A DNA stretch of 64,000 bases from an uncultured archaeon. Lineage in GTDB: Archaea; Thermoplasmatota; Penumbrarchaeia; JASLWR01. This document shows positions 1 to 58,524 of this stretch, piece by piece; within the stretch, counting starts at the first letter, position 1, and every line of letters starts with the position of its first letter. The notes under the pieces were generated by a model. The model had not been told where the DNA came from, searched no databases, and saw nothing but the letters and a program-made list of their open reading frames with translations. Location: positions 75,803-139,802 of the forward strand of contig CAYSHM010000006.1 of the NCBI GenBank assembly GCA_964430885.1. The letters run 5' to 3'. The translations under genes were made by a program, and so were the position numbers.

Positions 1-2439
1 ACGGCGGATACCTGGTATGTTGAGATAGTTGATGACGAAGGAACCAACGGCAAGTTCACCTCATTGGATCTGGATAACAACGGGAAACCCCATATCGCCT
101 ACCAGAAGACGGAAGGATTCGAGCTGAGATATGCTGACAAAACAGGTGCGGCTTGGGATACGGAAACCATAGAGGCGGGTGAAGCGTCCTATGGGTGGCA
201 TAACTCGATAGCGGTAGATTCTAACGGGAGACCTCATATCGCCTATTACGAGAATACCAACGGAATTCTGAAATATGCCCGCTGGACCGGTTCTCAGTGG
301 TCCATTGAACAGGTGGACCCTGCGGAATATGCAGGTAGTTACCCATCACTTGTTCTGGATGATTCCAACAATCCTCATATCTGCTATTACAGCTCCCGCT
401 GGAACTCCGATAACGGCCGGTTGAAATATGCCCATAAGACTGGTCAGGGATGGACATTGGAATTTCTGCATAATTCCACTGCCATGGGAAAACATCCTTC
501 TTTAGTGCTTGATGATGATGAGAGGCCTGTTGTGGCATATACCGATGCTGGTCAGGATGCACTCCGATTATTGAGATGGGATGATGAGGCCCCATCAGCA
601 AATGCAGGTACGGATATTGTGACCCTCCAGGGAGTGAATACAGATTTTAATGGGTCCGGATCAAGGGACAATTACGGTATTTCCAGCTACGATTGGACTT
701 TTGAATACAACGGCTACATGAAATATCTCACCGGAAAGACGCCCTACTACAAGTTCAATGATGTGGGGGTTTACACCATAACCCTCAATGTTACGGATAA
801 TGCAGGCAACTGGGATCAGGTTGTCTTCAATGTTACCGTTAATGATAATGAGCGACCTTACGCAGATGCCGGTGGCCCTTACAACGGCCCCCAGAACGAA
901 GCAGTTTATTTCAACGGCAATGTATCATATGATAATGTGGGCATAGACAGCTATACCTGGACATTGGACTACCAGGGAGCTGAAGAGGAGCTGTTTGGGA
1001 TAGATCCCTATTTTGTGTTCGGAGAAGCAGGTCAATACAACATTTCTCTCAATGTAACGGATTCAGCTGGGTTTTGGGATACTGACGCTGCTACAGTGAC
1101 CATATGGGATTCTGAGAATCCGGTGGCAGTTGCTGGGAATGACCGGACAATTGATCAAGGTGAAGGAATAACGTTTGATGGGCTTTCCAGCACTGATAAT
1201 ACGGAGATAACCGGTTATGAGTGGACCATATTCCTTGAAGGCATGGTAGTAGAGGTTTTCGGAGGAGCTACCCCCAAGTATGTTTTCAATAATGCCGGGG
1301 AATATGTGGTTTCTTTGAATGTTTCTGATTCCACCGGCAACTGGGATATTGATTCCATTACCGTGACGGTTCTGGATACCACCGACCCCACGGTTCAGGG
1401 CGAGGTTCCGGATTCGGTTCCTCAGGGGACCAGGGTGCTATTGAACGCTACGGCTAGTTCAGACAACGTGGGTATTGTGAAGTATAAATGGACCTTCAAT
1501 TACAATGGTATCTCCATGTCACTGAACACTGCTTTAGCCGAATTCACCTTTGAGATAATAGGTCTGTATGATATTGTTTTGAAAGTTGAGGATGCCGAGG
1601 GTAATTATGATACCCTGCATTTTTCATTGAACGTAACAGATACGATGTCCCCTGCAGTAGAGATCACTAGTGCCAGTCCAAAGGAGGTTAATGGCTCTCT
1701 CTATGTTTTCGATGCATCGGGCAGTTCAGATAATATGGATATTGTTCAGTATATCTGGAAGTTCAAAGACAGGGGAAATGATGTCACACTAACTGGAGAT
1801 GTTGTGGAGTATAATTTTACCAAGGGCGGAAAATACAATATCAGTCTCAGAGTATTGGATGCAGCTGGAAATGAGAACGTTTCATTTGTTGTCATATCTT
1901 ACGGGAAGGTTTCCCAGGGTGATGACGATTCTTCGTCGGATGACGATTCATCCGATGATGATGATTCAGTTTCGGGAGATAAGGGCAGTGGTGATGATGG
2001 ACCAAATTGGCTCTTGATAATAATATTATTAATGCTGGCAGCCATTATTATAGGTGTCGGAATAGTGGTAGCGGTTTATATGGTGAAGAAGAATAAAGAG
2101 GAGAAGGATGAACCGGATGATGATAGGGTAGAGGGTATTGAAGAAGCCTCTCAACCCCAATCACCCCAGGAGCTCTACGCCCAGCTTTATGGTTCTTCAC
2201 CTCCCAGGGGTCCGGGAGATTACGGAAATGAAGGAGTAGTACCTGGCCACTCAGGACCTCCTCCGGCAGAACGAAGGTCTCCTACTGCCGAACAAGCTAA
2301 GCAAAAAGCGGTTCAGCAAAAAGCAGCCGCGGAACCTGGAACTCCGCAGCAAAACCCGAATGCCGAAAAAATCGCTCCTGGTAAACCCCGATCACCTCAG
2401 GTTCCCGGCAGCAGTCCGCCTCGACCACCGAAACAATAG
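1..2439 (+). CDS. Surface protein with beta-propeller-like and PKD-like repeats, C-terminal TM anchor and acidic/Pro-rich tail; 5' end truncated by window edge
   Basis: Frame 1 is open from nt 1 into the ORF-track start at 64 (TTG). Repeated 'PHIAYY...LKYA..W' units and PKD-like 'YTITLNVTDNAGNWD' modules; Asp/Ser-rich stretch, then hydrophobic helix 'WLLIIILLMLAAIIIGVGIVVAVYMV', then charged/Pro-rich tail ending PPRPPKQ. Confidence 0.6.
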   Translation, partial: TADTWYVEIVDDEGTNGKFTSLDLDNNGKPHIAYQKTEGFELRYADKTGAAWDTETIEAGEASYGWHNSIAVDSNGRPHIAYYENTNGILKYARWTGSQWSIEQVDPAEYAGSYPSLVLDDSNNPHICYYSSRWNSDNGRLKYAHKTGQGWTLEFLHNSTAMGKHPSLVLDDDERPVVAYTDAGQDALRLLRWDDEAPSANAGTDIVTLQGVNTDFNGSGSRDNYGISSYDWTFEYNGYMKYLTGKTPYYKFNDVGVYTITLNVTDNAGNWDQVVFNVTVNDNERPYADAGGPYNGPQNEAVYFNGNVSYDNVGIDSYTWTLDYQGAEEELFGIDPYFVFGEAGQYNISLNVTDSAGFWDTDAATVTIWDSENPVAVAGNDRTIDQGEGITFDGLSSTDNTEITGYEWTIFLEGMVVEVFGGATPKYVFNNAGEYVVSLNVSDSTGNWDIDSITVTVLDTTDPTVQGEVPDSVPQGTRVLLNATASSDNVGIVKYKWTFNYNGISMSLNTALAEFTFEIIGLYDIVLKVEDAEGNYDTLHFSLNVTDTMSPAVEITSASPKEVNGSLYVFDASGSSDNMDIVQYIWKFKDRGNDVTLTGDVVEYNFTKGGKYNISLRVLDAAGNENVSFVVISYGKVSQGDDDSSSDDDSSDDDDSVSGDKGSGDDGPNWLLIIILLMLAAIIIGVGIVVAVYMVKKNKEEKDEPDDDRVEGIEEASQPQSPQELYAQLYGSSPPRGPGDYGNEGVVPGHSGPPPAERRSPTAEQAKQKAVQQKAAAEPGTPQQNPNAEKIAPGKPRSPQVPGSSPPRPPKQ

Positions 2440-2791
2440 CTGCTCCTTATCAATTTTAATGGTTTATTCTTCCCTAAATTCATAGTGCATAGAATGAAAT
2501 TTATTAGGAAGCGAATAAATTATATGTCCTTAAAAGGTAATGTCTTTCTATGAAATTTATCATTTGGTCTAGATGAAATGCATCCTTTATTCCATGCCCT
2601 CCAGGTTATTGAAATCAACATGATTTTATTTTCCCTGAAAATGGGTCCTATTTACTAATGGATCAGCAGTGTATGGAATGCTCATGCAGAATAGCATAAA
2701 AAGTAATAAATAAAAGAGCTGGCCATTGGGGCTTTATTACAATTTCAGGTTAAATGGATTGTAGCGTATTATTATAGGAGGTTGAAGGACT

Positions 2792-3421
2792 TTGTCAGAA
2801 GGATTACAGTTGAGGACATTTATATTCATCGATCAGATGCAGCCGCAATTTGCAGCATATCAGGCTACTGTCGGGAGAGGTTATCTGCCAGTATCAGGTA
2901 TGGCTGCAATATATATTGAAACTGCACCCGGAATGCCCATCAATCGGGTTACGGATCTGGCATTGAAATATACAAGTGTGAGACCGGCAGAACTAATAGT
3001 GGAGCGAGCTTTTGGAATGTTGGAATTCCATCATGAATCCCAGTCCGAGGTCAGAACAGCGGGAAAAGCCGTTCTAGATGGCCTAGGTTTGGAGGAGATG
3101 GACAGATATAAACCAAAGGTTGTGACCAATGAGATAATCAAGAAAATAGATGATTACCAGTCAATGATAATCAATCGTTCCTGGAGGGGTATGATGATCC
3201 TTCATGATCATTCTCTCTTCATTATGGAGACTCAGCCTGCCGCTTATATAACCTATGCCGCAAACGAGGCCGAAAAGGCAGCAGATATCAATATTGTCGG
3301 CATCAGGGCAGCCGGTGCCTTTGGCAGGCTGTACATCAGCGGTTGGGAATCCGATGTCAGGGCCGCAGCGGATGCCGCTACGACGGCCATAGAGGGTATT
3401 GACGGTAGGGATGATTGGTAG
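2792..3421 (+). CDS. BMC shell protein, tandem-domain BMC-T (EutL/PduB-like permuted type)
   Basis: Two BMC-like halves; second half 'AAYITYAANEAEKAADINIVGIRAAGAFGRLYISGWESDVRAAADAATTAIEGI' fits the BMC fold pattern. TTG start preceded by AGGAGG at 2776-2781. Call from recalled family motifs, not alignment. Confidence 0.55.
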   Translation: MSEGLQLRTFIFIDQMQPQFAAYQATVGRGYLPVSGMAAIYIETAPGMPINRVTDLALKYTSVRPAELIVERAFGMLEFHHESQSEVRTAGKAVLDGLGLEEMDRYKPKVVTNEIIKKIDDYQSMIINRSWRGMMILHDHSLFIMETQPAAYITYAANEAEKAADINIVGIRAAGAFGRLYISGWESDVRAAADAATTAIEGIDGRDDW

Positions 3422-4190
3422 TTCCGCCGACCTAGGTGTCTTTATGGATCCCGACCGTCTCAGGACCATCGTTCTGGAGCAGGTACGGAGATATTTTCAG
3501 AACGAGGGAATGGAGTTCATTCGATATGAAAAGGATTCCGAAGAAGGATCTAAAGGTATATTGATAGTGATAAACCGAACTGATCCATCAATGGACCTTT
3601 TATTCAGCCAGATAAACAATCTGGTATCTGCTGGTCATAACATCACATTGATGAGCACCTCCGAAGTGAGGGCAATATTGGGCCAGCAGGGCTATTGGTC
3701 ACTTGACCGGATCACCTACTTGTCTATTGATGATACCCGAAAGGTCAACATGAAAATTGACGAATATTGGTCCCTGCTATTTCCGGTTATAGGTTACTCC
3801 CTGGCCGGAGAGATATCAGCCTTAAAAGATACAAATCCATTGGCGGATTTGGCTTTGACGGCCCTGCGCAGTGGATTGGATGTCGGAGTGGCAGTGGATA
3901 CCCTTGAGACTGTAGGGAAGAAGGCTCGTAGGCCAAAGCTGATCTCCGAGTCCACCAGGATACAGAAGGGCTTATCGGGAATAGGCGTGAGATTGGTAAC
4001 CCTGGAAAATATGGTCAACGAGATGTCCTTTGACAAACGGAGGTTCACAGGCCGAGTGCTGACAGAGGATATAATAAACAGCTATATGTCCCGTGGCGTG
4101 TTCGATATCAATGTGGATGAAGATACTGTGATCACGCCTTTGGCAAGGGAAAGGGCAAGGGAGTTGAACATTCGAATAAATATCATTTAG
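3411..4190 (+). CDS. BMC-locus protein of unknown function; N-terminal amphipathic helix may be an encapsulation peptide
   Basis: ORF 3399..4190 with in-frame ATG at 3411 and 3444. N-terminus 'DPDRLRTIVLEQVRRYF' is amphipathic; C-terminal 'GRVLTEDIINS...VITPLARERARELNI' loosely resembles a segment of the N-terminal domain of the DeoC fusion at 11266. No family recognised. Confidence 0.45.
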   Translation: MIGSSADLGVFMDPDRLRTIVLEQVRRYFQNEGMEFIRYEKDSEEGSKGILIVINRTDPSMDLLFSQINNLVSAGHNITLMSTSEVRAILGQQGYWSLDRITYLSIDDTRKVNMKIDEYWSLLFPVIGYSLAGEISALKDTNPLADLALTALRSGLDVGVAVDTLETVGKKARRPKLISESTRIQKGLSGIGVRLVTLENMVNEMSFDKRRFTGRVLTEDIINSYMSRGVFDINVDEDTVITPLARERARELNIRINII

Positions 4191-4238
4191 AAATTGAATT
4201 AATAGGATCAGATATCATAGATCAAGGAGTGTAAGAAA

Positions 4239-4532
4239 ATGAAATTGTGCAGAGTGGTAGGAAATGTGGTAGCCACTGTCAAGGACCGAAACATCGAGTC
4301 CTTCAAGCTGATGATAGTACAACCGGTGGATTTCAAGGAACAGAAGCCCTATGGAGAGCCTCTAGTGGCAATAGATGCGGTTGGTGCCGGCCAAGATGAG
4401 CTGGTCCTGATAGTTCAGGGAAGTTCCGGCAGAATGACCGCTATAACTGACCAGAAACCGTCCGACTGTACGATAATGGCAATTGTGGATTTTGTGACCT
4501 TAAACGGTGAACAGACCTTTGCAAAACGGTGA
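4239..4532 (+). CDS. BMC vertex (pentamer) protein, EutN/PduN/CcmL family (BMC-P)
   Basis: 97 aa; 'MKLCRVVGNVVATVK...AIDAVGAGQDELVLIVQGSSGR...AIVDFVTLNG' matches the EutN/CcmL pattern. ATG at 4239 with AAGGAG upstream. Confidence 0.85.
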   Translation: MKLCRVVGNVVATVKDRNIESFKLMIVQPVDFKEQKPYGEPLVAIDAVGAGQDELVLIVQGSSGRMTAITDQKPSDCTIMAIVDFVTLNGEQTFAKR

Positions 4533-4550
4533 TCGAGGGAGGTTTTAATA

Positions 4551-5981
4551 ATGGAGATCAGGCAGGATCAGATAAATAATATTGTGGATGAGATAGTTAG
4601 AAGAGTGGAGCTGGATATGAGCTATGGGAAACCGAACATGGGGCCAGCCAAGCAGGGAGGCACTACAGGTATCTACAGCACTATTGACGAGTGTATTGAG
4701 AAGGCGAAGAAGGCAAGAAAGTTTTTGATGTCAATGTCATTGGATCAAAGGCAGAAGCTGATAGATGCCATGAAAGGGGAGATATTGCAGAACGCAGATC
4801 CTCTGGCCAAGCTTGCTGTTGAGGAGACTGGATTGGGTCGGTACAAGGACAAGGTGAATAAGAACATTCTGGCTGCGACAAAGACCCCTGGATGCGAGGA
4901 CCTGCAGACTGAAGCCCAGACGGGCGACGACGGTCTCACACTGTACGAGATGGGGCCCTTTGGAATTATAGCTTCCATAACACCTACTACCAATCCCACG
5001 TCAACGATCACATGCAACTCCATCGGCATGATCGCTGCTGGAAACGCTGTTGTGTTCAATCCCCATCCGAGGGCTACCAAGACCAGTCTGGAGACCATAA
5101 GACTGCTGAACCGGGGTATTCAGTCGGCAGGAGGTCCTACTGATCTTATAACAACGGTTAAAAAACCAACAATTGACACAAGCCAGGCTCTTATGAACCA
5201 TAAGGAGGTCAATCTACTCTGCGTAACCGGCGGTGAAGGAGTGGTGCATTACGGTCTTACCAGAGGGAAAAAATGCATTGCAGCAGGTCCGGGAAATCCT
5301 CCTGTTTTCGTGGACGATACCGCTGATCTGATACGGGCGGGCAGGGATATTGTGGACGGAGCCAGTTTTGACAACAATATCCTCTGTATAGCTGAAAAAG
5401 AGGTTCTGGTATTCGAAAATGTGGCAGATAGGCTAATCTCTGAGATGAGGAAACACGGTGCACATCTGGTCAGCGGAAAGGAGATAGACCGGCTGATAGA
5501 TTTGGTATTCAATGATCCCTCGGGAGAGATCCCCCTGGTGAACACCAAATGGGTGGGTCAGGATGCAGGTAAGATACTGCGGAACATAGGAATAACCGAT
5601 AAGTTCAATGCGCGATTGATCCTTGCCGAGGTTCCTCACGATCATCCATTCGTGCTGGCTGAAATGCTAATGCCAATACTGCCCATAGTTAGGGTGAAAT
5701 CCATAGATGAGGCCCTTAAAATTGGTCTGAGAGCCGAACATAGATTCAGACATACCGCAGCTATGCATTCCACAAATGTGGACAATATGACCAAGGTGGG
5801 ACGGGCAATGGAAACCACAATATTCGTTAAGAACGCTCCATCCTATGCAGGTCTGGGTTTTGGAGGTGAGGGATACTGCTCCCTTACAATAGCCGGACCA
5901 ACCGGTGAAGGAGTTACAAGGGCGAGGAATTTTGCCAGATTGAGAAGATGTACGCTCAAGGATTCATTCAGAATTGTGTGA
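4551..5981 (+). CDS. CoA-acylating aldehyde dehydrogenase (PduP/EutE-like) with N-terminal encapsulation-peptide-like helix
   Basis: 476 aa; catalytic-Cys region 'DNNILCIAEKE', 'GPFGIIASITPTTNPT'. N-terminal 'QDQINNIVDEIVRRVEL' amphipathic helix followed by linker. GAGGGAGG upstream. Confidence 0.85.
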   Translation: MEIRQDQINNIVDEIVRRVELDMSYGKPNMGPAKQGGTTGIYSTIDECIEKAKKARKFLMSMSLDQRQKLIDAMKGEILQNADPLAKLAVEETGLGRYKDKVNKNILAATKTPGCEDLQTEAQTGDDGLTLYEMGPFGIIASITPTTNPTSTITCNSIGMIAAGNAVVFNPHPRATKTSLETIRLLNRGIQSAGGPTDLITTVKKPTIDTSQALMNHKEVNLLCVTGGEGVVHYGLTRGKKCIAAGPGNPPVFVDDTADLIRAGRDIVDGASFDNNILCIAEKEVLVFENVADRLISEMRKHGAHLVSGKEIDRLIDLVFNDPSGEIPLVNTKWVGQDAGKILRNIGITDKFNARLILAEVPHDHPFVLAEMLMPILPIVRVKSIDEALKIGLRAEHRFRHTAAMHSTNVDNMTKVGRAMETTIFVKNAPSYAGLGFGGEGYCSLTIAGPTGEGVTRARNFARLRRCTLKDSFRIV

Positions 5982-6028
5982 ATAATAATCGATAATAAAT
6001 ATTTCAGTCCAGCAGATCAGGTGAAAAA

Positions 6029-7390
6029 ATGGCTTCATTGGGAACGGATATGGTAAGGAACTCGGGGATAATAGGTGCGGGTGGTGCAGGTTTTCCTACC
6101 CATGTCAAGCTGGCAGCTAAGGTTGATTGTGTAATAGCCAATGGTGCCGAATGTGAACCCCTTCTCAAGGCGGATAAGCAGCTCATGGAGCATTTCCCTG
6201 AAAAAATACTGGATGGTATGAAAGCAGCCATGGATATGACGGGAGCCCAGAAAGGTATAATAGCTCTAAAGAGAAAGTATGCGGATGCGGTGTCCTCCTT
6301 CAGAACTCGATTGGCGGATGCTGTGAACGGTAGATATGAAGGAATATCCATATTTGAACTTGAGAACTTCTATCCTGCAGGCGACGAACAGGTCATGGTC
6401 TATGAAGTGTTAGGACGGGTAATTCCCGAAGGCGCCATACCATTGTCAGCAGGTGTTGTTGTGGACAATGTGGGGACCCTGGCCCAAATATCGGAAGCCA
6501 TTGAAGGAAAAAATGTTACCCATCGGTGGGTAACGGTCACTGGTGAAGTGGCCTACCCAAAGACCCTTTACATCCCTATAGGTACTTCTATAGAAAAGAT
6601 GCTTGGATTGTGCGGGGGTCCGACAATAACCAATTACAGGATATTATCCGGAGGTCCCATGATGGGACGTCTAGTAAACCTTACCGATAGTGTTCTGAAA
6701 ACCACCTCGGGTATCATAGTTTTCCCGGCAGATCATTATGTTGTGAAGGCTAAAACCCGCCCGGTGGAAGTGAATGTTAGGTATACTTTAGCGGCATGCA
6801 TTCAGTGCAAAATGTGCACTGATGTATGTCCCAGATTCAATCTGGGTAAGTATGTATGTCCGGACAGTGTGATGAAAGGCATCGCTTACGGAATACTTTC
6901 AAAACCGGAGGATATGACCACCGCATTCCTCTGCGTTGAGTGCGGATTATGCACCCATTACGGATGCCCTATGGGTTTGGACCCCTGCGGTATGATGGGG
7001 AAGGTCAAATCCGAACTTATTTCCGAAGGTATGACGAACCCACATTCAAGGACGGATCTGTCTGCCAGGGAATACAGGCCTTTCAGAAAGGTTCCCCTAA
7101 AAAGATTGATGGCCAGGATGGATCTTTTGAGATATGATGTACCGGCACCCATGGAGCTGAAGGACCTATCGAAGGTTATTACAGAAGTGAATATCCCTCT
7201 TAAACAGCACATAGGCGCGCCTTCGAAACCTGTTGTGAAAGTGGGAGATCAAGTGAAGAAGGGTGAACTGATAGCAGATATTCCAAAAGGTTCTCTGGGG
7301 GCACGGTATCATTCCAGCATTAACGGTGAAGTAACAGGTGTGGATTCCTGCATCAGTATTAGAGCAAAGAAAATCGGAGGAATTGAATGA
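6029..7390 (+). CDS. PduS-like RnfC-family Fe-S flavoprotein (electron-transfer partner of PduT)
   Basis: 'GIIGAGGAGFPTHVKLAAKVDCVIANGAECEPLLKADKQLM' nucleotide-binding motif; two Cys clusters 'CIQCKMCTDVCP' and 'CVECGLCTHYGCP'; PduS-type C-terminus. Confidence 0.8.
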   Translation: MASLGTDMVRNSGIIGAGGAGFPTHVKLAAKVDCVIANGAECEPLLKADKQLMEHFPEKILDGMKAAMDMTGAQKGIIALKRKYADAVSSFRTRLADAVNGRYEGISIFELENFYPAGDEQVMVYEVLGRVIPEGAIPLSAGVVVDNVGTLAQISEAIEGKNVTHRWVTVTGEVAYPKTLYIPIGTSIEKMLGLCGGPTITNYRILSGGPMMGRLVNLTDSVLKTTSGIIVFPADHYVVKAKTRPVEVNVRYTLAACIQCKMCTDVCPRFNLGKYVCPDSVMKGIAYGILSKPEDMTTAFLCVECGLCTHYGCPMGLDPCGMMGKVKSELISEGMTNPHSRTDLSAREYRPFRKVPLKRLMARMDLLRYDVPAPMELKDLSKVITEVNIPLKQHIGAPSKPVVKVGDQVKKGELIADIPKGSLGARYHSSINGEVTGVDSCISIRAKKIGGIE

Positions 7391-7944
7391 GAGAGTCTAT
7401 AGGTCTCATGGAGTTCAACAGCATTGCAAAGGGTATTGAGGTGACGGATGTTCTTCTGAAGGCTTCCGAGGTGGAACTCATATTCTCATCGCCGGTGTGT
7501 CCTGGAAAGTATCTGATAATGATCTCTGGTGAGGTGGAGGCTGTTAAGAATTCACTGGGAAAAGGAGCCGACATATCGGATGGTTTCCTCATCGATCAAA
7601 GTGTAATACCTCAGGTTCATGAAAAGGTGTTCCCAGCCATAGCTGGGACCACACTGCCCGAGGTGATGGGGGCCATTGGTGTCATAGACTGCTATTCTTC
7701 GGTTTCGGCAGTAGTGGCAGCCGATAAAGCGGTGAAATCCGCCGATGTAGATCTGCTGGAGATTCGATTGGCCAGGGCGTTGGGAGGAAAGGCCTTTGTC
7801 ATAATAACAGGTGAGGTTGCCGATGTGAGGGCAGGTGTCGATAACGGAGTTGAGTCCATAAAGGAACACGGACTGCTGCTGGGCACAGTGGTAATTCCGT
7901 CCCCCCACCAGGACCTACTGGAAACGTTGATAGGATCGAGATGA
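7387..7944 (+). CDS. PduT-like tandem BMC-T shell protein with conserved Fe-S ligand Cys38
   Basis: 185 aa, two BMC domains; 'SIAKGIEVTDVLLKASEVELIFSSPVCPGKYLIM' parallels PduT '[34 protein letters not shown]' as recalled. Start ATG overlaps PduS stop (ATGA). Confidence 0.85.
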   Translation: MRESIGLMEFNSIAKGIEVTDVLLKASEVELIFSSPVCPGKYLIMISGEVEAVKNSLGKGADISDGFLIDQSVIPQVHEKVFPAIAGTTLPEVMGAIGVIDCYSSVSAVVAADKAVKSADVDLLEIRLARALGGKAFVIITGEVADVRAGVDNGVESIKEHGLLLGTVVIPSPHQDLLETLIGSR

Positions 7945-8041
7945 TCAGATCATAAATTCATATCACGATTAATTAAATTAATTAATTGATGAATAATTTG
8001 AAGAATATAATCAAGAAGATGAAAAATAGAAGTTGATTGAA

Positions 8042-8548
8042 ATGAGAATTTGCAGGGTAATAGGCAATCTGGTATCCACATGCAAGATACCTGATCACGA
8101 AGGTTTCAAGATACTGGCGGTTCGTGCTGTCGATCTTCACGGCAGAATGCATGGTGAGACCTTTCAGGCTATAGATTGCGCCCAGGCAGGTGTGGGTGAT
8201 TTTGTGCTCGTGATAGAGGAAGGAGGCTCCTGCAGTCAGGTGATGAGCGGAGTTAAGTCGCTAACCCCCAAGGGTGACCGGGTGGCAGTCAACAAGTCCA
8301 TTCTTGCTGTTGTGGATTATATTGAGGCTGATGGAGAGCTCAGAAGGCTGGAGCAGACAGCAGAGATGGAAGAGGATGGAGGAAAGAAAAAATTAAGAAG
8401 TACCAAGGTTAAAAGAAAGACCTCCAAGGCTACTGGAAAAAAGGGTAAAGAAAAAAAAAGTGAAAAAACGTCAGGAAAAAATTCCCGCAAACCTGCTAAA
8501 ACCTTGGCAACAAAGAAAGGCAAGGGCGGTAAGAAGAAGAAGGGTTGA
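8042..8548 (+). CDS. BMC vertex protein (EutN/CcmL family) with about 60-aa lysine-rich C-terminal extension
   Basis: 'MRICRVIGNLVSTCK...AIDCAQAGVGDFVLVIEEGG' BMC-P core, then tail 'GKKKLRSTKVKRKTSKATGKKGKEKKSEKTSGKNSRKPAKTLATKKGKGGKKKKG'. ORF-track start 8033 is TTG; first ATG at 8042. Confidence 0.8.
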   Translation: MRICRVIGNLVSTCKIPDHEGFKILAVRAVDLHGRMHGETFQAIDCAQAGVGDFVLVIEEGGSCSQVMSGVKSLTPKGDRVAVNKSILAVVDYIEADGELRRLEQTAEMEEDGGKKKLRSTKVKRKTSKATGKKGKEKKSEKTSGKNSRKPAKTLATKKGKGGKKKKG

Positions 8549-8554
8549 TAGATT

Positions 8555-9469
8555 ATGTCAGAAGACGAGCTCAGAAAGTTAGTAGAAAACATGGTTCGAT
8601 CCATGCTGGAATCCGGTTCTGTGGAGATACAGAAGGGAACTGCTCTAAGGACCCAGGGAGATATCTCAAGGCCTACCAACAATTATTTTAATGATCAGAT
8701 GGAGGGTAATGCCCGGTATGTGGTTGCAGCCAATTGGAAGATGAACATGACCACCATAGAGGCCAAGGAATTCGCTATGCAGATAAGGGCCTTAGGAGAG
8801 GAAATTTCCAATAGTAAAAGGGATGCAGTGGTCTGTCCTCCTATTTATTTGGCTCCTCTTCTGAAAACAGCGTTCATGGGGACGGGTATCCGGTTGGGCG
8901 GTCAGAATATGCACCATGAGACCAAGGGTGCTTATACCAGCGAGATATCGCCTCTAATGCTTAAGGATGCGGGTTGTCAATATGTGATAATTGGACATTC
9001 TGAAAGGAGACATATATTTGGTGAAAAGGACCATCATATCAATATGAAGGTGAGGTCAGCTTTCAATCATGGCCTTGTACCTCTTTTCTGCGTTGGCGAG
9101 ACCGAGAAGGAACGGGAGAGCAATGCTACCTTCAGGGTTGTCAGGAAACAATTGAAATTGGGCCTCTATAAGACAAGCTCCAAGCAATCCGGCAGGCTGA
9201 TAATCGGTTATGAACCGGTTTGGGCAATAGGCACTGGGAGAAATGCTACTCCGGCTGACGCCCAAAGGGTACATGCATTCATCAGGGAGGTTCTGACGGA
9301 GATCTACGATTTCCCCACGGCCAAGAATATCAGGATTCTCTACGGCGGAAGCGTTACACCTGATAATGCTTCAGGTCTTATAGCCAAAAAAGATATCGAC
9401 GGTTTCCTGGTGGGGGGTGCTTCTCTCACCGCTTCCAAGTTTATGAGCATAGCGGAGGTGTGCAAATGA
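8555..9469 (+). CDS. tpiA: Triosephosphate isomerase, bacterial type, with about 50-aa N-terminal extension (putative encapsulation peptide)
   Basis: 'AANWKMN', 'IGHSERR', 'YEPVWAIGTG', 'YGGSV' motifs. N-terminal 'EDELRKLVENMVRSMLE' amphipathic helix precedes the catalytic core. Confidence 0.85.
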   Translation: MSEDELRKLVENMVRSMLESGSVEIQKGTALRTQGDISRPTNNYFNDQMEGNARYVVAANWKMNMTTIEAKEFAMQIRALGEEISNSKRDAVVCPPIYLAPLLKTAFMGTGIRLGGQNMHHETKGAYTSEISPLMLKDAGCQYVIIGHSERRHIFGEKDHHINMKVRSAFNHGLVPLFCVGETEKERESNATFRVVRKQLKLGLYKTSSKQSGRLIIGYEPVWAIGTGRNATPADAQRVHAFIREVLTEIYDFPTAKNIRILYGGSVTPDNASGLIAKKDIDGFLVGGASLTASKFMSIAEVCK

Positions 9470-9945
9470 GCCAGGATATGAGGAAGATATTGATAGGTAG
9501 TGATCACGGGGGATTTGAGTTAAAGGAGATTATTAGACAGTTCCTCAAGGACCAGGGATACCGGGTTGTTGATTTTGGTTGCTATTCGCCGGACCCTGTT
9601 GACTATCCAGATATTGCCTTTTTGGTCTCTCAGGGGGTGTGTTCGAATCCTAATTCAATTGGTATAATGATAGATGGGGTAGGTGTTGCCAGTACAATGG
9701 TTGCAAACAAGATTCCCGGGATCAGGGCCGCCCTTTGCTGGAATCAGTTCAGCGCACACAATGCACGTGAGCACAACAATGCAAATATGCTCGTCCTAGG
9801 GGGTAGGGTAATCGGTGATATATTGGCCAGGAGCATTGTGAAGGAATTCCTGGAAACAGAATTTGCCGGCGGACGGCACGCACGGAGGGTAGACAAGATA
9901 ATGGCGATTGAAGCCAAATATCTGAGGTCTATTCAGGAAAAATGA
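9466..9945 (+). CDS. rpiB: Ribose-5-phosphate isomerase B (RpiB/LacAB family)
   Basis: 'KILIGSDHGGFELKE', 'MLVLGGRVIG', 'FAGGRHARRVDKI'. ATG at 9466 overlaps tpiA stop (ATGA); alternative ATG at 9478. Confidence 0.8.
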   Translation: MSQDMRKILIGSDHGGFELKEIIRQFLKDQGYRVVDFGCYSPDPVDYPDIAFLVSQGVCSNPNSIGIMIDGVGVASTMVANKIPGIRAALCWNQFSAHNAREHNNANMLVLGGRVIGDILARSIVKEFLETEFAGGRHARRVDKIMAIEAKYLRSIQEK

Positions 9946-10047
9946 GTTAAAAGTTAACAGAGTTAGGATAAATTTATTAGTTCAGTGTAATAATAATATA
10001 AAACTTAATAATATAGAGTTGAGAGACGAATCTTGAGGAGTGAACCA

Positions 10048-10335: not shown

Positions 10336-10640
10336 GCATAACATGGACACTGCGGACAACCATCCAAGGCTCTATTTACCTGGAAGAAATATTTGGACAG
10401 TAAATAATAATATAGGAATAAGGTAAGATTAGTGTGTTAATTTAATCCTGTTACCAGGATGTGAATTCATAATAGTATTGGATAGGGCATGGGTATGAGT
10501 AAAGGTAAAAAGCAATAGATGAAAAATTCGAAATCAGCTATTGAAATGTATAATCAATCAAAAATTATTGAGAAGTAGTAGTCAAGGATTATTACAATGG
10601 AGATACATTGAATCCAAAACAAATCAAGGAGGAAAAATAA

Positions 10641-27333: not shown

Positions 27334-27897
27334 TTATCTAAGACGTCCTCTGGCACCGCAGTTAGAGCAGGTGATTTCAATGGGTCTCTCATCAGAGGTA
27401 ACTGTGATATTACTTCCGCACTTGGGACACTTGATCTTTGTTGCCTCCTTCTTCTCCTCTTCCTCTTCCTCTTCCTCTTCTTCTTCGCCCCATTGTTCTT
27501 CAGTTTCCTCTTCTTCCTCTTCCTCTTCCTCTTCTTCTACCTCTTCTTCCTCCTCCACTTCCTCTTCCTCTTCCACTTCCTCTTCCACTTTTTCTTCTAC
27601 TGGTTTGGATCCCCTGGAACTAAGATAATCGGAAAGTGCTGCACGAACTACATCACCAACGGAAACTTTTTCCTCACTCATTACTTTATTAACGCCCATA
27701 ACTATCTTCTCAGGTATAACAACATGGATCTCCTCTGCGCCGTCCAATTCCTCTTCCAGATTTTCCAGAGCTCCAGCCATTGTGCTGATCCTCATGTCGC
27801 CATTTGCCATTTTGTCCTGAATTCGGGCTACTATTTCTTCCTTGGTGAGCCATTCTCCTGATACCTGTATTGTACCTTCATCAAGATTGATTTTCAT
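27334..27897 (-). CDS. Small acidic protein with poly-Glu linker and C-terminal C4 zinc ribbon
   Basis: 'KCPKCGSN...CSNCG' zinc ribbon; roughly 60-residue Glu/Val-rich linker. Confidence 0.5.
   Translation of the reverse strand: MKINLDEGTIQVSGEWLTKEEIVARIQDKMANGDMRISTMAGALENLEEELDGAEEIHVVIPEKIVMGVNKVMSEEKVSVGDVVRAALSDYLSSRGSKPVEEKVEEEVEEEEEVEEEEEVEEEEEEEEEEETEEQWGEEEEEEEEEEEKKEATKIKCPKCGSNITVTSDERPIEITCSNCGARGRLR
27440..27600. repeat. CTT/CTC-rich simple-sequence tract (GAA/GAG on coding strand) encoding poly-Glu
   Basis: Visible run 'cttcttctcctcttcctcttcctcttcctcttc...' spanning about 160 bp. Confidence 0.8.
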
Positions 27898-28166: not shown

Positions 28167-31100
28167 CTATTGGCGAGGCGGACGGGGAGGTAAATTATCA
28201 CTGCTGTTTTCAGTAGGCTCTTCTTCATTGGCCAGATCGCCCGTGAGCTCCTCCTCTTCGGATGACGGCCCATTCTCTTCTCCGTCGGTCCCTTCAGCAG
28301 TCCCTTCCTGGTTATCCATACTGCTCCTGTTATCATCAAATTCATCCTCTGCTTCGAATTCATCCTCTGCTTCGAATTCATCCTCTTGAAGCACTTCTTC
28401 CTCCAACATCCTATCCTCGGTTTTCCCCTTGTCCTCCTTTTTGGTTTTCATTATGTAAATGGCCATGGCGGTCCCTACTCCTAGAATGAGAATCACTAAA
28501 GCTATCAATATAATCCAGAGAGTAGTATTTCCCGAACCGGGATCCTTGTCCGAATCGTCATCGTCATCATCTGATGCAGAACCGAAATATGATGTTGGAA
28601 AGGAATCAATATTGTGCTTCCATGTCTTTGTTTTTCCGTCATACTCGGCAGTTATCTCGGTTCCATCTGGTATGCCGGTATATCCAATTAGGCTGAATGT
28701 AACCTTTCCATCCTTACCAGTGGTACCAGCATAGTCCCGATTTCCCAAACTGAACGTAACGATGACACCCTCAAGCGGTTTGCTTCCATCCATGAAAGGT
28801 CCCATTTTAACATCGGCGCCTGATATATCAAGATACATGTCTCCCAGATCCACATCTGCACCTTCTATCTTGAAGGATATTGTTTTGTCATCATAACCAT
28901 CAGCAGATAGGACAAGATCATATGAACCGTTGGGTAGTGATGCAGTGAACACACCATTGGTATCAAGGGTGATATTGATTCTATCCTGACCTTTTGTTAT
29001 ATAACCCTGGGCATTGACTGGGGCAACCTTTCCGCCAACGGAATACTTGGTCAAGGCGGTTGTAGTGAATTGGAATGTGAGGTCACTGTCCAATTCTTGA
29101 CCGTCAATGTCTTTTACACCTTGGAGGTCTATCTGATAGATAGTATCCTCTTCGAAACCATCTTTTGGTGTGAAGGTGAAATTGTATTTATCGATCCATG
29201 TGCTTCCTTGGATGAAGGGAGTGATAATGACGGTGTCACCCAGAGTGAAAGAAGTGTAATCCATCATTTTAGTGAATTCGACTATTATGGTAGAATTGAG
29301 CGGTATGTCGACACTTCCGTCCAATGGGTAAGTTGTAACAACCATTGGCAGCTCTAATTCCACAACAGATAGAGCGTATTCAGAATCAATGGTATAGGTT
29401 GAGGAACCGTCATCCACAAGTACCTGAAGGTAGTATCTCCCGATCTCCAGATCCGATGTGTTCCACGAATAACTTTCCTCGAATGGATCAAGATATGACA
29501 GTAAGAACAAAGTTGTGTTATCTCTCTCTTCATAATAATAAAGGGTAAGGTTTGTATCAGAAATTGGACCCGGATCTCCGCCTATATTCAAATGGACAAT
29601 GAATTTCTCCTTTCCTTCATATATGGTAAAATTTTCATCTTTTAATGAATCGAATTGGAAGGTGAATGGCACCGGCGGAGCAGTTACCTCTCCGGGACTC
29701 ACAGCTCCTATCTTCCAGTCATCCTTTGAATTGGTGTCGAGATAATTCACTCCCGCTCCTCCGGTCAATCTGCTGAGGCTCTGTCCCTGGGAAATGTTGG
29801 TCACATTGATACATGACGAAGTTAGATTGTTATCCCAGTCGGCCCCGTCTCTCAGTGAACTGATATCCAATATTTCATGGGCGGTCAAGGTTCCCTCCGA
29901 CTGCCAGGCTACAGCATCATGAACCAAATCTTCGGTATCTGCCAATATCACTTGGTCTCCGCCGGTACTTAGCACTCCATTGCTTGCGCTTGTATATATG
30001 TCGATTATGCCGTCGCCATTCCCTTCCATGCTGCCGTTTTCGCTCGCCATGGTATCATTGTTAAAGTGTATGAGCAGATATTCATCACTAGCAATGACAG
30101 TTCCATCGAAGAAATGGTCGGTATTCCCATCAATGTCATCTATCCACCATCCTGTTATATCCGCACCATCCCCCAGATTTCCATCATCCACGCAGAAAAT
30201 CTCAACCCAATTATCACCTGTTTCCGGTTTGAACATGACCTCCGTTATAAGCAGGATAGGTTCAGGTGCTGGCTCGGCAATCGTTATTGTAAACAAACTG
30301 CTGAATCTTGGCTGATTTGTTCCATCCTCGGCAGCAATCCTGAACTTAATAACACTTCCCAATGCCTGCCCGGGGATACTTGCACACCAGTTATTATCTC
30401 CTGCTATTTCATCTATCCCCGTTCCATCATCCTTCATAATTATTTCATTTTGGTCAGCATCATTGAGGGTCCAGTTGATCACAGCCCTTGTCACACTCAC
30501 ATCGTCAGTGATCCTTGCTGAGATGTTCAGATCTGTCATTGGGGCAAGTGTATGATTGTCGGGTAAAGGATCAAGAATAATATCAGTTATCAATGGCAGC
30601 TCATCGGCCAGGTCTCTGAAGATTCCGGGTTCGGGAATTTCAAGTATATGCCAGTCGTTTCTGGAGTTTGAGTCTGTTTCTCCTCTGCTCCTGGTTATAC
30701 TGAAACCCGCGGATATATTATCCGAATCCACGCAGGCACCTGTGTTGTTGGCATCCCACTGGCCCTTAGCAACAGTATAATTCAGGTCGTCCTTTTCACC
30801 TGCTGAGAGAGTATCATTATAAGCCCAGCACACAGCGTCCATTAGGAATCCGTCCTGATCAAAAAGTATTACTTGATCCCCCTGATAGCTAAGGCGGGTA
30901 TTGCTCCCTTCAGTATATGTGTCCAGGATATTATCGCTGTTTCCGTCATCTACAGAAATCTCGTCTTCCATATCCGGGGAGTTGTAATGCATTAAGAGGA
31001 TATCGCCTGTGTGAACCAAGGCATTGCCGAATGTTTTATCCCTGCTTCCGTCTTCATCATCAAGACCCCATCCAAGAATGGAATTCCCATTTCCGCTATT

Positions 31101-54609: not shown

Positions 54610-57600
54610 TCAGCTTTTCTCGGCTTTGAGGGATGAACGGAGCTGATTAAGGGTGGATAGAACATCCTCGTAATCTTCATTTCCTGCAGTAGGTCCATTT
54701 GTCCTTTTGTCTCCGTGGTTTGCCGGTGGAGGAGGAGGGTTTTGGGTTTCAGATACTGATGCAGGGGGTTTAGGGGGTATAGGTTCATGAGGTGTTTCCA
54801 TTAGGGAAGGAACTTCATTCGGTGAAGGGATTGGTTTAGAATCAGGTTGAGGTTTCTCAGCAGCAGTCCTGTTGGATTCTAATGTTTGAGTAGGCTTTCC
54901 CGATAGTTTCTCCATTAACTCTTTTCTCTGTGAATCAAGATTTTCCAGTTTGATCTGTAACGGAGCGGTCTCTAATTCTGGGGCATTCCTAGCCTGAAGG
55001 TCCGCCAGCTGTTGGGTGATATTGATCTTGAAGCGGTCCAGGGTTTGCAGAAGTTCCTTTGTCTCTCCCATATCCTTCTGGTTTTGTTCATCCTCCCCTC
55101 CTTGCTTTGTTATTTCCTTTTCTCCAGCTGTAACCTTCTGAACCGCTCTCGGCGGTCTGGCTTTAGGCGGCTGAGCTTTTGCTTTTTCACCTTGGGAAGC
55201 TGTTTCTCTTCGTTTTTTCTGGTTTCTAGCTCCTTGTGCAAAGGAAGGCGGTCGGGAAGGTACTGCTCCAGTCTGCTGTTGAGGAGCGGGGCCTACCTGT
55301 GCCTGAGTTTGGTTCGGCCCCCCAGCTGCTCCTGGCTGCGGCCCGCCGTATCCTTGGGGAGAACCTGCACCTGATTGATATCCCTGGGATGGTATTCCAC
55401 CATACACCGGTCCCATGTTGGACTGTCCCATTCCCATTGCCAGAAGGTCCATTGAAGCGTCCTGGGGTTCTGATTCTCTGTCATCCACGTCCTTCTTTTT
55501 CTTCCAGATGAACAGAGCAATACCCAATCCAAGACCGAGAACTATAATAATGATCAGTATGAACCACACCCAGGAAGCACCTGATCCCCCGTTTCCTTCA
55601 GAAGATGATTCCCTTTCAGATTTCTCAAATGGAATCGATTGGGAGATGTCCGTATCCGCTGAGACCGCTTTCACAAAGAACTTTGAAGCCATGAGGTCCA
55701 AATCGGGCCAATGAACAGTTAGTTTAATATCCCTATCGTCCTTTGGATGGAGCAGAAATGAATCATGTTCGAGTTGGGTAAAGCTGTCGAAGGCACCAAG
55801 AACCGTCAATGTGATCTCTTCAGGTACATTTCCATCATTGCTGACGGTGACATTGAATGTTGTGGTGTACCCTTCCTTCAGCTGTGTCAATTGGATAGTA
55901 TCAAATTCTATTGAGATATCATGTTCAGGTTCAAAATCCAGATCGACCTTGAACGAACGAATATTACTCCTAAATGTACTGTACACACCGAAGAAGGAGA
56001 CCTCCACCATCCAGTAATATGTCATGCCGTCGATAAGTTCTTCAGTGGTATATGAATTCGCTATAATTCCCTCCCTTACAGGAGATATTTGATCAGGGAA
56101 CAATCCCATATGAACGGCGTATGAAGGGGAGCGTTCGGTATAATTTATATCCCACTTCAATTCCGGTGTATTATCGGACAGAGTGATCTGATCCAATGGG
56201 TATGTCTGGAATATCCCTACATCAGGGCATTCGGTCCAGTCATGGATGTTGACAAAAATGCTCTTATCTCTTCTATCACCGTCCTTATCCTTTACAGTGA
56301 GAGCTATGGAGAACTCCCCCACTGAAAGCATGGACACCGGGGTTATGTTCAGTATATTATTGTTTTTTACAGTAGCGCTTATGAAGTTGGTCTTTGCTGT
56401 TTTGATACTCCAAACCAGTTCCTCTTTGGGGTCTTCGGTGTCCCAGGCTAGGTCCCACAGGGAGAACTCCCTGCTTCGGTGGCTGTAAAGATGGAACACT
56501 GTGAATTCCTCGAAGATCTCAGGCGGATTGTTCATCAGCTCAAGTGTACTGTTGTAATAGTACCAGGGAGCCATACCGTGGTCCCGGTCTTCCAGGGAAA
56601 CCCTGATTCTGTACTGTCCTAGTTCATGATCCAAAGTAGTATTGAAACATACGCTGAAATTGATGCCGTCCTCATTGTGGTTCACTGGGAGAGGAGTCCA
56701 GTCTGAAGTGCTGTTTTTTACCTCGACCCGGGCATCCAAAATGTCCGATCCGTCCTCAAGATCTACAGGATCTATCCAGATCACCCCGCATTCCCCTCGA
56801 TGGAAAACAGAGGGTGATAGGGTCAGGTTAGCAACACTCGGTAGATTGTTGTGGAGATTGATCTGATGGTTCATATCGTACCAATCCGATACCGACCCAT
56901 CTTTATCTTCAGCTCTTATTCTGATATCATAAAGGCCGGGTTTGGATGTTTTTGGAAATGTGAGGTCGAAACCCCATTTACCCTCATTGTCATCGAAGAT
57001 GGGTTCCGTGAAAATATCGGACCGCCAGGTAATTGTTTCTTCATCAGAAAGCGAGTATTGGGCTGCTACAGCCAATTCGTCCTCGTAATCCTCCTCGTCT
57101 GAAACTGCCACGTACATTGTGGATGTTTCCGTTCTGAAAAGTGATACAGGCCCTAGAATATTTTCGATGACAGGTTTATTGTTGATCACTCTGAGGCCCT
57201 GGGCTTTTGTTTCCCAGTTACTGTATAGTCCGTTAGGGTCCTGGAACCTCACCCTGATGTCGTAATAACCGGTCTCAGTATCCAGTTCAGGCTCGAAGTC
57301 AACGTACCACCAATTGCCCTGGGAAACTGGATTTGTGAACATGGAGTCACTCCATGGATTACCTCCTGGGTTGCGAAGTTTATATTGGAATTCAGCGGTT
57401 AATTGGTCAGGTAGTGAGAAATAGCTTTCAGTTCTACCGTAAACTCTGGTGGTATTTCCACGTTTAACCGATGTTTTGGGAATATTTATTTCCGGCTGGA
57501 TCGGGGGAGCTGTGAGTAGCCAAACATCAATGGTACCATCCCTTGAGGCGGATGCGATCATCTCGTCATCCGGAGACCAGTCAACAGATGATACTGCCTG

Positions 57601-58524
57601 TGTATGACCCGTGAAATTGACATAGGTATACCCGGTGTCCGGATCCCATACCTTAACATCCCGATCAGCCGAACCGGTTACGATCTTGGAACTGTCCAAT
57701 GACCAGTCCACACATAGAACATCATCTATATGCTCCTCATAGACAAAAAGCTCAGCACCGGTGTCTGCATTCCAGATTTTCACAGTATTGTCCGATGATG
57801 CAGTTGCTAACTTAGTACCGTCTTGAGACCAGGCAACGTCGTTGACAGTATCCGAATGACTGGTCAATTCCTGATCCACATTACCGTTCTGAGGGTTCCA
57901 AATGAATACCTTGGAATCATTACCTCCCGAAGCTATCTCATCTCCCCCGGGCGACCAATCCACACACCGAACCTGATCTGTATGCTGGGTGAAGGATAGT
58001 ATTTCCATATCGTCAGGATTTGCCACATTCCAGTACCAGATAAGTATCTCACCGTCCTCTGAACAGGATACCACCTTGTCGCTGTTCGGGGACCATGAAA
58101 TATCTGTGACCCTATTGTCAGGAACACCGTCATAGTGACCCAGAAAAGTAGCTTCAGAATTACCGGTTATGGTGCTCCATACCTTTGCTTTTCCTGAAGC
58201 ACTACTACTGGCAATGTGCATTTCATTAGGCGACCATTCTGCTGAAAGGACATCGTCAGAATGCATCGCATAACGTATCCTCTCGTCAGTTTCGTTCCAT
58301 TTCCATATCATAGCGTCGCCGTCGGAATCGCAGCTGACCAGCTCTGTACTGTTGGGGGCCCATGATACACAATTAACGAAACCGTCATGGTTCCTGAAGG
58401 AGTTGTCAGAGAGATAATCATCTATTGTGGCATTGGTGTTGATCACGAAGGGAAATGACGCACCGATCAGGATCAAAATTATTAGAAAATTCAGGATTGT
58501 ATTTCTCATTATGTTCGTTTTCAA
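54610..58524 (-). CDS. Giant (1304 aa) WD40 beta-propeller surface protein with TM anchor and long Pro/Gln/Gly-rich cytoplasmic tail
   Basis: Signal peptide; repeated WD40 units ('VSCDSDGDAMIWKW', 'VKIWNADTG', 'VKVWDPDTG'); TM 'WVWFILIIIIVLGLGLGIALFIW'; tail rich in P/Q/G/A. Confidence 0.6.
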   Translation of the reverse strand: MKTNIMRNTILNFLIILILIGASFPFVINTNATIDDYLSDNSFRNHDGFVNCVSWAPNSTELVSCDSDGDAMIWKWNETDERIRYAMHSDDVLSAEWSPNEMHIASSSASGKAKVWSTITGNSEATFLGHYDGVPDNRVTDISWSPNSDKVVSCSEDGEILIWYWNVANPDDMEILSFTQHTDQVRCVDWSPGGDEIASGGNDSKVFIWNPQNGNVDQELTSHSDTVNDVAWSQDGTKLATASSDNTVKIWNADTGAELFVYEEHIDDVLCVDWSLDSSKIVTGSADRDVKVWDPDTGYTYVNFTGHTQAVSSVDWSPDDEMIASASRDGTIDVWLLTAPPIQPEINIPKTSVKRGNTTRVYGRTESYFSLPDQLTAEFQYKLRNPGGNPWSDSMFTNPVSQGNWWYVDFEPELDTETGYYDIRVRFQDPNGLYSNWETKAQGLRVINNKPVIENILGPVSLFRTETSTMYVAVSDEEDYEDELAVAAQYSLSDEETITWRSDIFTEPIFDDNEGKWGFDLTFPKTSKPGLYDIRIRAEDKDGSVSDWYDMNHQINLHNNLPSVANLTLSPSVFHRGECGVIWIDPVDLEDGSDILDARVEVKNSTSDWTPLPVNHNEDGINFSVCFNTTLDHELGQYRIRVSLEDRDHGMAPWYYYNSTLELMNNPPEIFEEFTVFHLYSHRSREFSLWDLAWDTEDPKEELVWSIKTAKTNFISATVKNNNILNITPVSMLSVGEFSIALTVKDKDGDRRDKSIFVNIHDWTECPDVGIFQTYPLDQITLSDNTPELKWDINYTERSPSYAVHMGLFPDQISPVREGIIANSYTTEELIDGMTYYWMVEVSFFGVYSTFRSNIRSFKVDLDFEPEHDISIEFDTIQLTQLKEGYTTTFNVTVSNDGNVPEEITLTVLGAFDSFTQLEHDSFLLHPKDDRDIKLTVHWPDLDLMASKFFVKAVSADTDISQSIPFEKSERESSSEGNGGSGASWVWFILIIIIVLGLGLGIALFIWKKKKDVDDRESEPQDASMDLLAMGMGQSNMGPVYGGIPSQGYQSGAGSPQGYGGPQPGAAGGPNQTQAQVGPAPQQQTGAVPSRPPSFAQGARNQKKRRETASQGEKAKAQPPKARPPRAVQKVTAGEKEITKQGGEDEQNQKDMGETKELLQTLDRFKINITQQLADLQARNAPELETAPLQIKLENLDSQRKELMEKLSGKPTQTLESNRTAAEKPQPDSKPIPSPNEVPSLMETPHEPIPPKPPASVSETQNPPPPPANHGDKRTNGPTAGNEDYEDVLSTLNQLRSSLKAEKS

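Follow-up and report, generated by a model that had tools for sequence, protein, structure and literature searches.

Long, predicted cytoplasmic tails on five giant surface proteins of a Thermoplasmatota archaeon, two of them with near-identical PPRPP[KR]Q ends

In a stretch of 64,000 nucleotides from an uncultured archaeon (contig CAYSHM010000006.1 of assembly GCA_964430885.1, positions 75,803 to 139,802; hereafter the window), five very large proteins, P1 to P5, each carry a single C-terminal transmembrane (TM) helix followed by a long tail, which very probably lies in the cytoplasm. What unites these proteins is the style of anchoring and not ancestry, and this style is typical of the archaeal members of their families. 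Two of them from different repeat families, P1 and P3, end in nearly the same seven residues directly before the stop codon, PPRPPKQ (2416-2439 with the stop codon) and PPRPPRQ (28167-28190, minus strand), as a preliminary description of the window had reported, and this shared ending is not chance. The heptad is discussed below as a candidate docking or sorting signal.

The five giant open reading frames listed in the preliminary description are all present where it placed them, with translations as described (Table 1); in gene-caller models, P2, P3 and P5 start 3-5 codons downstream of the longest-frame start. Our analysis covered a contig stretch of ~85 kb, i.e. the window and its flanks (L004 on the left and L005 on the right). 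An N-terminal signal or anchor sequence was found in all five proteins, as a direct hydrophobic segment in P2-P5 and, for P1, in the full-length copy (L004:4818-7889), since the P1 N-terminus with its signal/anchor sits left of the window. The signal of P3 is of the classical n-h-c type (KNRFRK / LPVLLLFCTLLSAPFLSLLG / PYGVQA). At the other end, a single strong hydrophobic helix (Kyte-Doolittle 2.2-3.4) is present in each protein; KKNK, RRRRK, KTKK, KSKK and KKKK come directly after it, and then tails of 117, 163, 93, 101 and 297 aa, in P1-P5, respectively. Three tails are strongly acidic (net charge -37, -27 and -25) and two are Pro/Gln/Gly-rich, so that the described order of one TM helix and a long charged or Pro-rich tail holds for every protein. 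The acidic or Ser/Asp stretch that was said to precede the helix throughout is clear in P1 (13 D and 10 S in the 40 aa before the TM helix), P2 and P3 (whose stalk contains DDDDDDSDKD), but weak in P4 and P5. The residues just before the helix read GPNW, DIKD, NTTLW, NKTLW and GASW from P1 to P5.

Topology prediction places the tails inside and not outside. In 25 proteins (the five and 20 orthologues), 109 K/R residues were counted within 15 aa downstream of the TM helix vs 44 upstream, and N-x-S/T sequons were depleted in the tails (5/783 residues) vs the ectodomains (130/5782; Fisher p = 0.0012), with 23/4105 in cytoplasmic control proteins of the window. Moreover, in relatives built in the same way the TM helix is followed by modules of cytoplasmic type: two winged helix-turn-helix (wHTH) domains in the tail of L006:3527-6940 (HTH_24, E = 2.5e-22), a DUF4129 domain in that of L018 (E = 1e-10) and CxxC...CxxC zinc ribbons in the tails of five PKD/propeller relatives. 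On the basis of this charge bias, the sequon depletion and the modules of relatives, we consider it very probable that the five are type-I single-pass proteins (N-out, C-in) with cytoplasmic tails.

The wHTH-tailed relative, from Thermoplasmatota, and a second such protein of the same assembly (GCA_964342815.1; L006:3527-6940 and L006:1-2602, both on the minus strand) consist of a signal peptide, a DUF2341/PKD ectodomain, one TM helix and two wHTH domains in the tail; they look like one-component regulators that are tethered to the membrane and whose extracellular part is a giant sensor or adhesin. Tails of this protein class can therefore hold cytoplasmic output modules, whereas the five window tails are without a recognisable domain. 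The M50 site-2 protease encoded at 38546-40609 was considered as a tail-releasing enzyme and rejected, as substrates of site-2 proteases are N-in/C-out helices, the opposite orientation.

The described absence of a PGF-CTERM archaeosortase signal was borne out: neither PGF-CTERM (TIGR04126-type) nor any other NCBIfam sorting-signal model matched the five proteins at E <= 1. Like substrates of archaeosortase A, they are surface glycoproteins of archaea whose C-terminal part includes a hydrophobic segment, but they lack the PGF motif and have the TM helix 93-297 residues away from the C-terminus and not at it; they do not appear to be PGF-CTERM/archaeosortase substrates. Left of the window, L004:311-4642 encodes a 1443-aa FG-GAP/transglutaminase-core surface protein with a C-terminal TM helix and a tail of four residues (...SRER). 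Such a protein stands beside long-tailed ones, and therefore two anchoring styles exist in one genome.

The proposal that the five form a single family did not hold, as their ectodomains belong to three unrelated lineages. P1 and P2 have only an N-terminal propeller module in common (31% identity over 263 aa, E = 2e-28), P3 and P4 are paralogues, and P5 is unrelated to either pair. P1 is assigned to the PKD-domain surface proteins by a Pfam PKD_4 score of 174 bits vs a gathering cut-off of 27 (E = 4.8e-52, five stretches). An exhaustive search gave two full-length P1 orthologues (P0110 and P0119, 41-43% identity), both with a D/T-rich stalk, a TM helix and a Pro/Gln-rich tail as in P1. Among the best 150 P1 matches, a TM helix with a tail of >40 aa was seen in 30 and one with a shorter tail in 48, while 72 had no C-terminal TM helix. 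P3 and P4 are assigned to the Lamin-tail-domain (LTD) proteins, with PF00932 scores of 79.4 and 72.3 bits vs a gathering cut-off of 34.3 over three and two stretches, respectively (in P3, LTD E = 3.2e-22 and Big_5 E = 1.3e-12). They have 14 full-length relatives in Thermoplasmatota (40-45% identity), every one with a TM helix and a tail of 50-141 aa. The gene order LTD-1, LTD-2, small poly-Glu zinc-ribbon protein is shared by the window and other genomes, and P4 therefore corresponds to LTD-1 and P3 to LTD-2. In P5, WD40 (PF00400) matched with E = 1.7e-57 over seven stretches; this propeller follows the signal/anchor and is therefore predicted to be extracellular. P5 has four orthologues (P0254-P0257, 33-37% identity) with tails of 107-615 aa. 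Across orthologues in other Thermoplasmatota the anchoring style is kept, with tails of 50-615 aa (87-118 aa in the P1 family).

The tails themselves are best described as fast-evolving and mostly disordered regions with short linear motifs and clade-specific conserved blocks, a well supported reading which follows from low pLDDT, predicted coil, repeat expansion and the conserved short blocks. No Pfam domain was found in any of the five (the tails of P1, P2 and P5 were also scanned alone). In single-sequence AlphaFold2 (AF2) runs, the C-terminal region of P3 gave a TM helix only, at a pLDDT of ~90, with a tail of pLDDT 52-58. For P5 the order was the TM helix, ~125 aa of coil, helices 183-219 and 228-248 (pLDDT ~80), ~75 aa of coil with PPKPP and a terminal helix; the two long helices coincide with the block conserved in orthologues. 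The 18-bp repeat in the P3 tail (Table 1) is a sign of recent expansion. A homology search with the TM helix and tail of P1 (185 aa) returned no match even at E <= 10, because such tails are too divergent or of too low complexity for sequence searches.

Short blocks are nevertheless retained within clades. The P1 family has an internal block with the consensus E.YY..LYGS[ST] (ELYAQLYGSS in P1, EYYAKLYGSS in P0110 and DYYKQLYGST in P0119), and P5-family tails share EP(T/S)QFVMPPP, the coiled-coil block and a basic patch, KRVKRV...KRKVKR. Tails of the LTD family are barely alignable and its sub-clades retain their own ends: five LTD-1 orthologues (P0003, P0005, P0006, P0011 and P0014; loci L006:10001-14320 and L008:10001-14356) end in ...VF..S......[ST]D[DE][DE]LLDE-COOH, though just 44-72% identical overall and with otherwise divergent, acidic tails, and further blocks, SSQQ.T...NEID..V and SSIENN.., occur in three and two LTD proteins, respectively. 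That other clades conserve terminal blocks of their own shows that selection can act on tail ends. P4 ends in IPSMPTLIPA, with no heptad. Acidic-hydrophobic ends were also seen on several unrelated long tails, namely ADLFEDNFDM in P2 and DLEDM, DDFEMG, LAEMGF and LEIFED in others.

Several lines of evidence bear on the heptad. In the six-frame translation of the window, PPRPP occurs twice, both times at a C-terminus, that of P1 and that of P3. Given the composition of the proteome, a protein would end in such a 7-mer with a probability of ~3e-10; with the composition of the tails themselves the values are 7e-7 for P1 and 2e-9 for P3. The P3 tail is acidic with only six prolines, four of which are in the heptad, so that they form an isolated cluster. 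Six of the seven residues are the same in both proteins, and six of the seven codons differ: CCG CCT CGA CCA CCG AAA CAA TAG in P1 vs CCT CCC CGT CCG CCT CGC CAA TAG in P3. When the last 400 nt of both genes and the 200 nt beyond them were compared by blastn, just chance 9-10-mers out of register were found, and the tails are otherwise unalignable. With different codons and no shared 3' DNA, the identity therefore lies at the protein level and is not that of a copied cassette. The six-frame translation of the window has three matches to the wider pattern PP[RK]PP, each in the tail of one of the five proteins (P1, P3 and P5). Among 54 long-tailed proteins it is found in 0/73,917 ectodomain residues vs 5/9,633 tail residues; all five tail matches lie <=50 residues from the C-terminus. 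Composition-preserving shuffles expect 0.55 matches, and 0/2000 reach five.

The account we favour begins with proteins that would be Sec-exported and N-glycosylated, on the surface of a marine Thermoplasmatota archaeon, with ectodomains of adhesin or ligand-capture type. The C-terminal stop-transfer helix would retain each of them in the cytoplasmic membrane, with the long, mostly disordered tail beyond it in the cytoplasm. Tails would change quickly by composition-driven drift and tandem-repeat expansion while short clade-specific blocks are kept, and within this lineage P1 and P3 would each, on their own, have gained or fixed PPRPP[KR]Q-COOH as their end, next to the related PPKPP in the P5 tail. 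A putative cytoplasmic reader of proline motifs could then bind the heptad and tie several unrelated surface proteins to a common intracellular partner. That PPRPP[KR]Q acts as a docking or sorting signal is a reasonable hypothesis, held tentatively; we favour it because the ending is non-random, the convergence is at the protein level, its place is strictly C-terminal, the P3 proline cluster is isolated, other terminal blocks are conserved, and PPRPPK and PPRPPR by inspection match the class II SH3-ligand consensus PxxPx[KR].

A number of results weigh against this reading. The heptad is absent in 20/20 orthologues (14 of P3/P4, two of P1 and four of P5); conservation in orthologues, as looked for in a short linear motif, appears in LLDE-COOH, LYGSS and the P5 coiled coil but not in PPRPP[KR]Q. 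Three of the five PP[RK]PP tail matches come from the genome of the window, and without that genome the remaining two vs 0.51 expected are not significant (P = 0.09). In the ~85 kb examined, the heptad occurs in no further protein, and no reader of SH3, WW, GYF or profilin-like type or other candidate partner is encoded. In genomes with LLDE-ending proteins, neighbouring unrelated type-I proteins do not have that end; a terminal motif common to unrelated proteins is therefore unique to this window so far, with two instances. The structure predictions, moreover, are from single sequences.

The main rival explanation, which we judge rather unlikely, gives the heptad no function: it would be a coincidence in the evolution of low-complexity tails, with the P3 end reached by drift or slippage and the tails serving only as generic charged spacers or topology determinants. 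This explanation draws on the missing conservation, on the non-significant enrichment outside the window genome, on the repeat expansion in tails, and on the P1 orthologues: P0119 has PPPRPPS inside its tail and PPPRGPPGQ at its end, P0110 ends in MPPNQPN, and a Pro-rich end of PxxP type is thus a trait of the P1 family, whereas the exact heptad is not. A coincidence accords poorly, on the other hand, with the proline cluster in an acidic P3 tail, the low probability from its own composition, the same last-seven position and near-identical residues despite unrelated codons, and the terminal blocks that other clades conserve. Transfer of a recombined or duplicated 3' cassette between surface-protein genes, for which one might cite the tandem P3/P4 paralogues and the abundance of large repetitive genes in the region, is highly improbable and was rejected for the want of 3' DNA similarity and the differing codons noted above.

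Two further explanations concern the fate of the nascent or finished chain. Consecutive prolines are ribosome-pausing sequences, relieved by EF-P/aIF5A, and two Pro-Pro pairs with rare codons before the stop might slow elongation or termination and so keep the nascent chain on the ribosome while the anchor ~95-120 residues upstream integrates into the membrane. Consistent with such pausing, all three Arg codons of the two heptads are of the rare CGN class (AGR accounts for 517/775 Arg codons, 67%), both Gln codons are the minor CAA (140 vs 307 CAG) and both stops are TAG; rare codons at these gene ends could be coincidence or slow decoding. We nevertheless consider this explanation improbable, as three of the five proteins and all orthologues do without the heptad, the neighbouring 1443-aa protein is anchored with a 4-aa tail so that no pause is needed, and the codon argument is post hoc on seven codons. 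The heptad might also be a C-terminal degradation or processing tag, read by a protease or unfoldase of the cytoplasm, and so govern how fast P1 and P3 are turned over. C-degrons, like carboxy-terminal recognition motifs in general, typically sit strictly at the free C-terminus, as the heptad does, and the genome has proteasome-related genes such as PAC2 (Table 1), but no protease gene is associated with the proteins, nothing separates a degron from a docking motif, and we know of no precedent for a Pro-rich C-degron in archaea; this explanation is hardly probable. To return to docking, a bolder extension would have PPRPP[KR]Q-COOH and clade ends like ...SDEELLDE-COOH as ligands of cytoplasmic adaptor or cytoskeletal proteins, by which wall-less marine Thermoplasmatota would couple diverse adhesins, both physically and informationally, to the interior by way of their disordered tails, in an integrin/cadherin-like 'outside-in' linkage of archaeal origin, with wHTH-tailed relatives signalling directly to DNA; we regard this as speculative and doubtful.

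Searches for further instances of the heptad gave little. A DNA pattern scan of the database for PPRPP[KR]Q plus stop, restricted to CGN and TAR codons, gave at least 120 rows, mostly high-GC bacterial background, and the window genome was not among the rows listed. Among the matches listed was one Thermoplasmata type-I surface protein (L018), whose DUF4129-containing, Pro/Gly-rich tail ends in ...GPPRPPQQ, a suggestive case but a weak one given its composition. By the profile route, a perfect match to the heptad has E ~5e5 at the size of a database of 5.8 billion proteins, as determined in a local test. As to population variants, the 90% cluster of P1 is a singleton, and the called sequence of P3 was absent from the collection searched.

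Compared with known systems, the five proteins are like archaeal surface and S-layer glycoproteins with a C-terminal TM helix in having a signal peptide, a sequon-rich ectodomain of Ig-like or propeller type, an acidic or Ser/Thr-rich stalk and a single TM helix with basic residues. In contrast, the classical anchors of S-layer type are trailed by just a few residues; here the tails measure 93-297 aa in the window, reach 615 aa among orthologues and contain conserved blocks both internally and at the end. With respect to known archaeal anchors with few trailing residues the long tails are new, yet they are no new system. Eukaryotic type-I adhesion receptors (integrin beta, cadherins, CD2-type) follow the same logic of a modular ectodomain, one TM helix and a disordered tail with short motifs. 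There is no homology, however, to these receptors, and the heptad differs from SH3 ligands in its strictly C-terminal place, its invariant terminal Gln and its two instances in one genome. The LTD modules of P3 and P4 match bacterial secreted proteins (extracellular nucleases and cargo of the type IX secretion system, T9SS) with E down to 1e-160, and a metagenome scan with the LTD alignment matched almost only bacterial LTD proteins; these end in T9SS-type C-terminal domains, in PEP-CTERM-like helices with 3-aa tails or without an anchor, and their nuclease domains are absent from P3 and P4.

Archaeal surface proteins are usually discussed by their outside parts and their anchors; here long cytoplasmic tails recur on unrelated giants, and a literature search found no paper on the cytoplasmic tails of Thermoplasmatota surface proteins. 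Conserved tail blocks, coiled coils and the DNA-binding domains of relatives suggest a role inside the membrane, in scaffolding, sorting or signalling. If the heptad has a reader, a non-Asgard archaeon would offer an example of protein interactions organised by short motifs; if it has none, what is left is a descriptive point on how these archaea anchor their surface proteins.

Table 1. Coordinates of the five proteins, their tail features and marker genes in the window
Feature	Coordinates	Strand	Description
P1	1..2439	+	812 C-terminal aa of a 1023-aa surface protein: BNR-like beta-propeller repeats, 5 PKD domains, D/S-rich stalk, TM, Pro/Gln-rich tail
P1 juxtamembrane stalk	1921..1968	+	Asp/Ser-rich, DDDSSSDDDSSDDDDS
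P1 C-terminal TM helix	2005..2085	+	Kyte-Doolittle 3.37; then KKNK
P1 tail conserved block	2170..2199	+	ELYAQLYGSS; aligns with P0110 and P0119
P1 terminal heptad	2416..2436	+	PPRPPKQ; stop codon 2437-2439
P2	19427..24034	+	signal/anchor, P1-type propeller module, ~8 unannotated Ig-like repeats, TSP3-type Ca-binding repeats, TM, 163-aa very acidic tail
P2 TM helix	23486..23542	+	then RRRRK
P3	28167..32378	-	signal peptide, 3 LTD modules, Big_5, CarboxypepD_reg-like domain, acidic stalk, TM, 93-aa acidic tail
P3 TM helix	28449..28526	-	then KTKK
P3 tail tandem repeat	28339..28386	-	perfect 18-bp repeat, 2.7 copies, encodes (EAEDEF)n; Tandem Repeats Finder (TRF), 100% matches
P3 terminal heptad	28170..28190	-	PPRPPRQ; stop codon 28167-28169
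P4	32546..36757	-	tandem paralogue of P3 (37% identity), same domains; TM 32852-32926; 101-aa acidic tail
P5	54610..58524	-	signal/anchor, 7-blade WD40 propeller, Ig-like repeats, TM 55504-55581, 297-aa tail
P5 tail helical block	54994..55065	-	coiled-coil-like, kept in orthologues; LLK(V/T)LEQHKE in P0254-P0257
PPKPP in P5 tail	54763..54777	-	third and last PP[RK]PP in six frames of the window
Small poly-Glu / C-terminal zinc-ribbon protein	27334..27897	-	directly after the LTD pair, position kept in other genomes
aIF2-alpha	17506-18297		
PAC2 proteasome chaperone	18484-19260		
Cbf5	47167-48174		with DKCLD and PUA domains

The window is assigned to an archaeon by its marker genes (aIF2-alpha, PAC2, Cbf5 and a TFIIB-type zinc ribbon, which is also encoded in the window), and those of its closest homologues that have a name bear the annotation 'Candidatus Thermoplasmatota archaeon'. 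It belongs to a 151-kb contig of marine metagenome origin (JGI 3300007511 Ga0105000_1000087, identical with ENA ERZ23498639 scaffold_150), which Logan assemblies contain as well. The plus strand at 14940-16766 encodes two neighbouring proteins with N-terminal anchors; in the second, an FKBP-type peptidyl-prolyl isomerase domain follows the TM helix. The pair are probably extracytoplasmic foldases for large surface proteins. As candidate proline readers they were set aside, since with an N-terminal anchor and the FKBP domain after the TM helix they are probably extracytoplasmic. To the right of the window, L005:1-9807 resembles an archaeal locus for type IV pili: genes for a T2SSE ATPase and a pair of T2SSF membrane proteins are followed by that of a 1718-aa protein with a Pfam Pilin_N match.

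Downstream of the LTD pair, the zinc ribbon of the small poly-Glu protein (KCPKCG...C..CGARGRLR), which is preceded by an N-terminal domain and a very long poly-Glu linker, is near-identical in L006:18429-19106, and in the window its gene is followed by those of two K/E-rich DUF7121 proteins (25084-27193). A complete microcompartment operon of sugar-phosphate type occupies 2792-12705 on the plus strand, with shell genes for CsoS1D_N/BMC, tandem-BMC, single-domain BMC and three EutN pentamer proteins, and with enzymes comprising an aldehyde dehydrogenase, an RnfC/Nuo51-like flavoprotein, triosephosphate isomerase, RpiB and DeoC/DERA. 'Archaeal microcompartments' were reported in Hodarchaeales and the Thermoplasmatota order JASLWR01 (2025 preprint, 10.1101/2025.11.08.687404), and the present operon is probably a member of that set. 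Judging from domain architectures and paper titles, extracellular nucleases and secreted proteins that bind DNA are the typical bearers of LTD modules elsewhere; together, the LTD pair, a TatD-family DNase gene (24111-25031) and the deoxyribose-phosphate microcompartment hint at extracellular DNA capture and catabolism.

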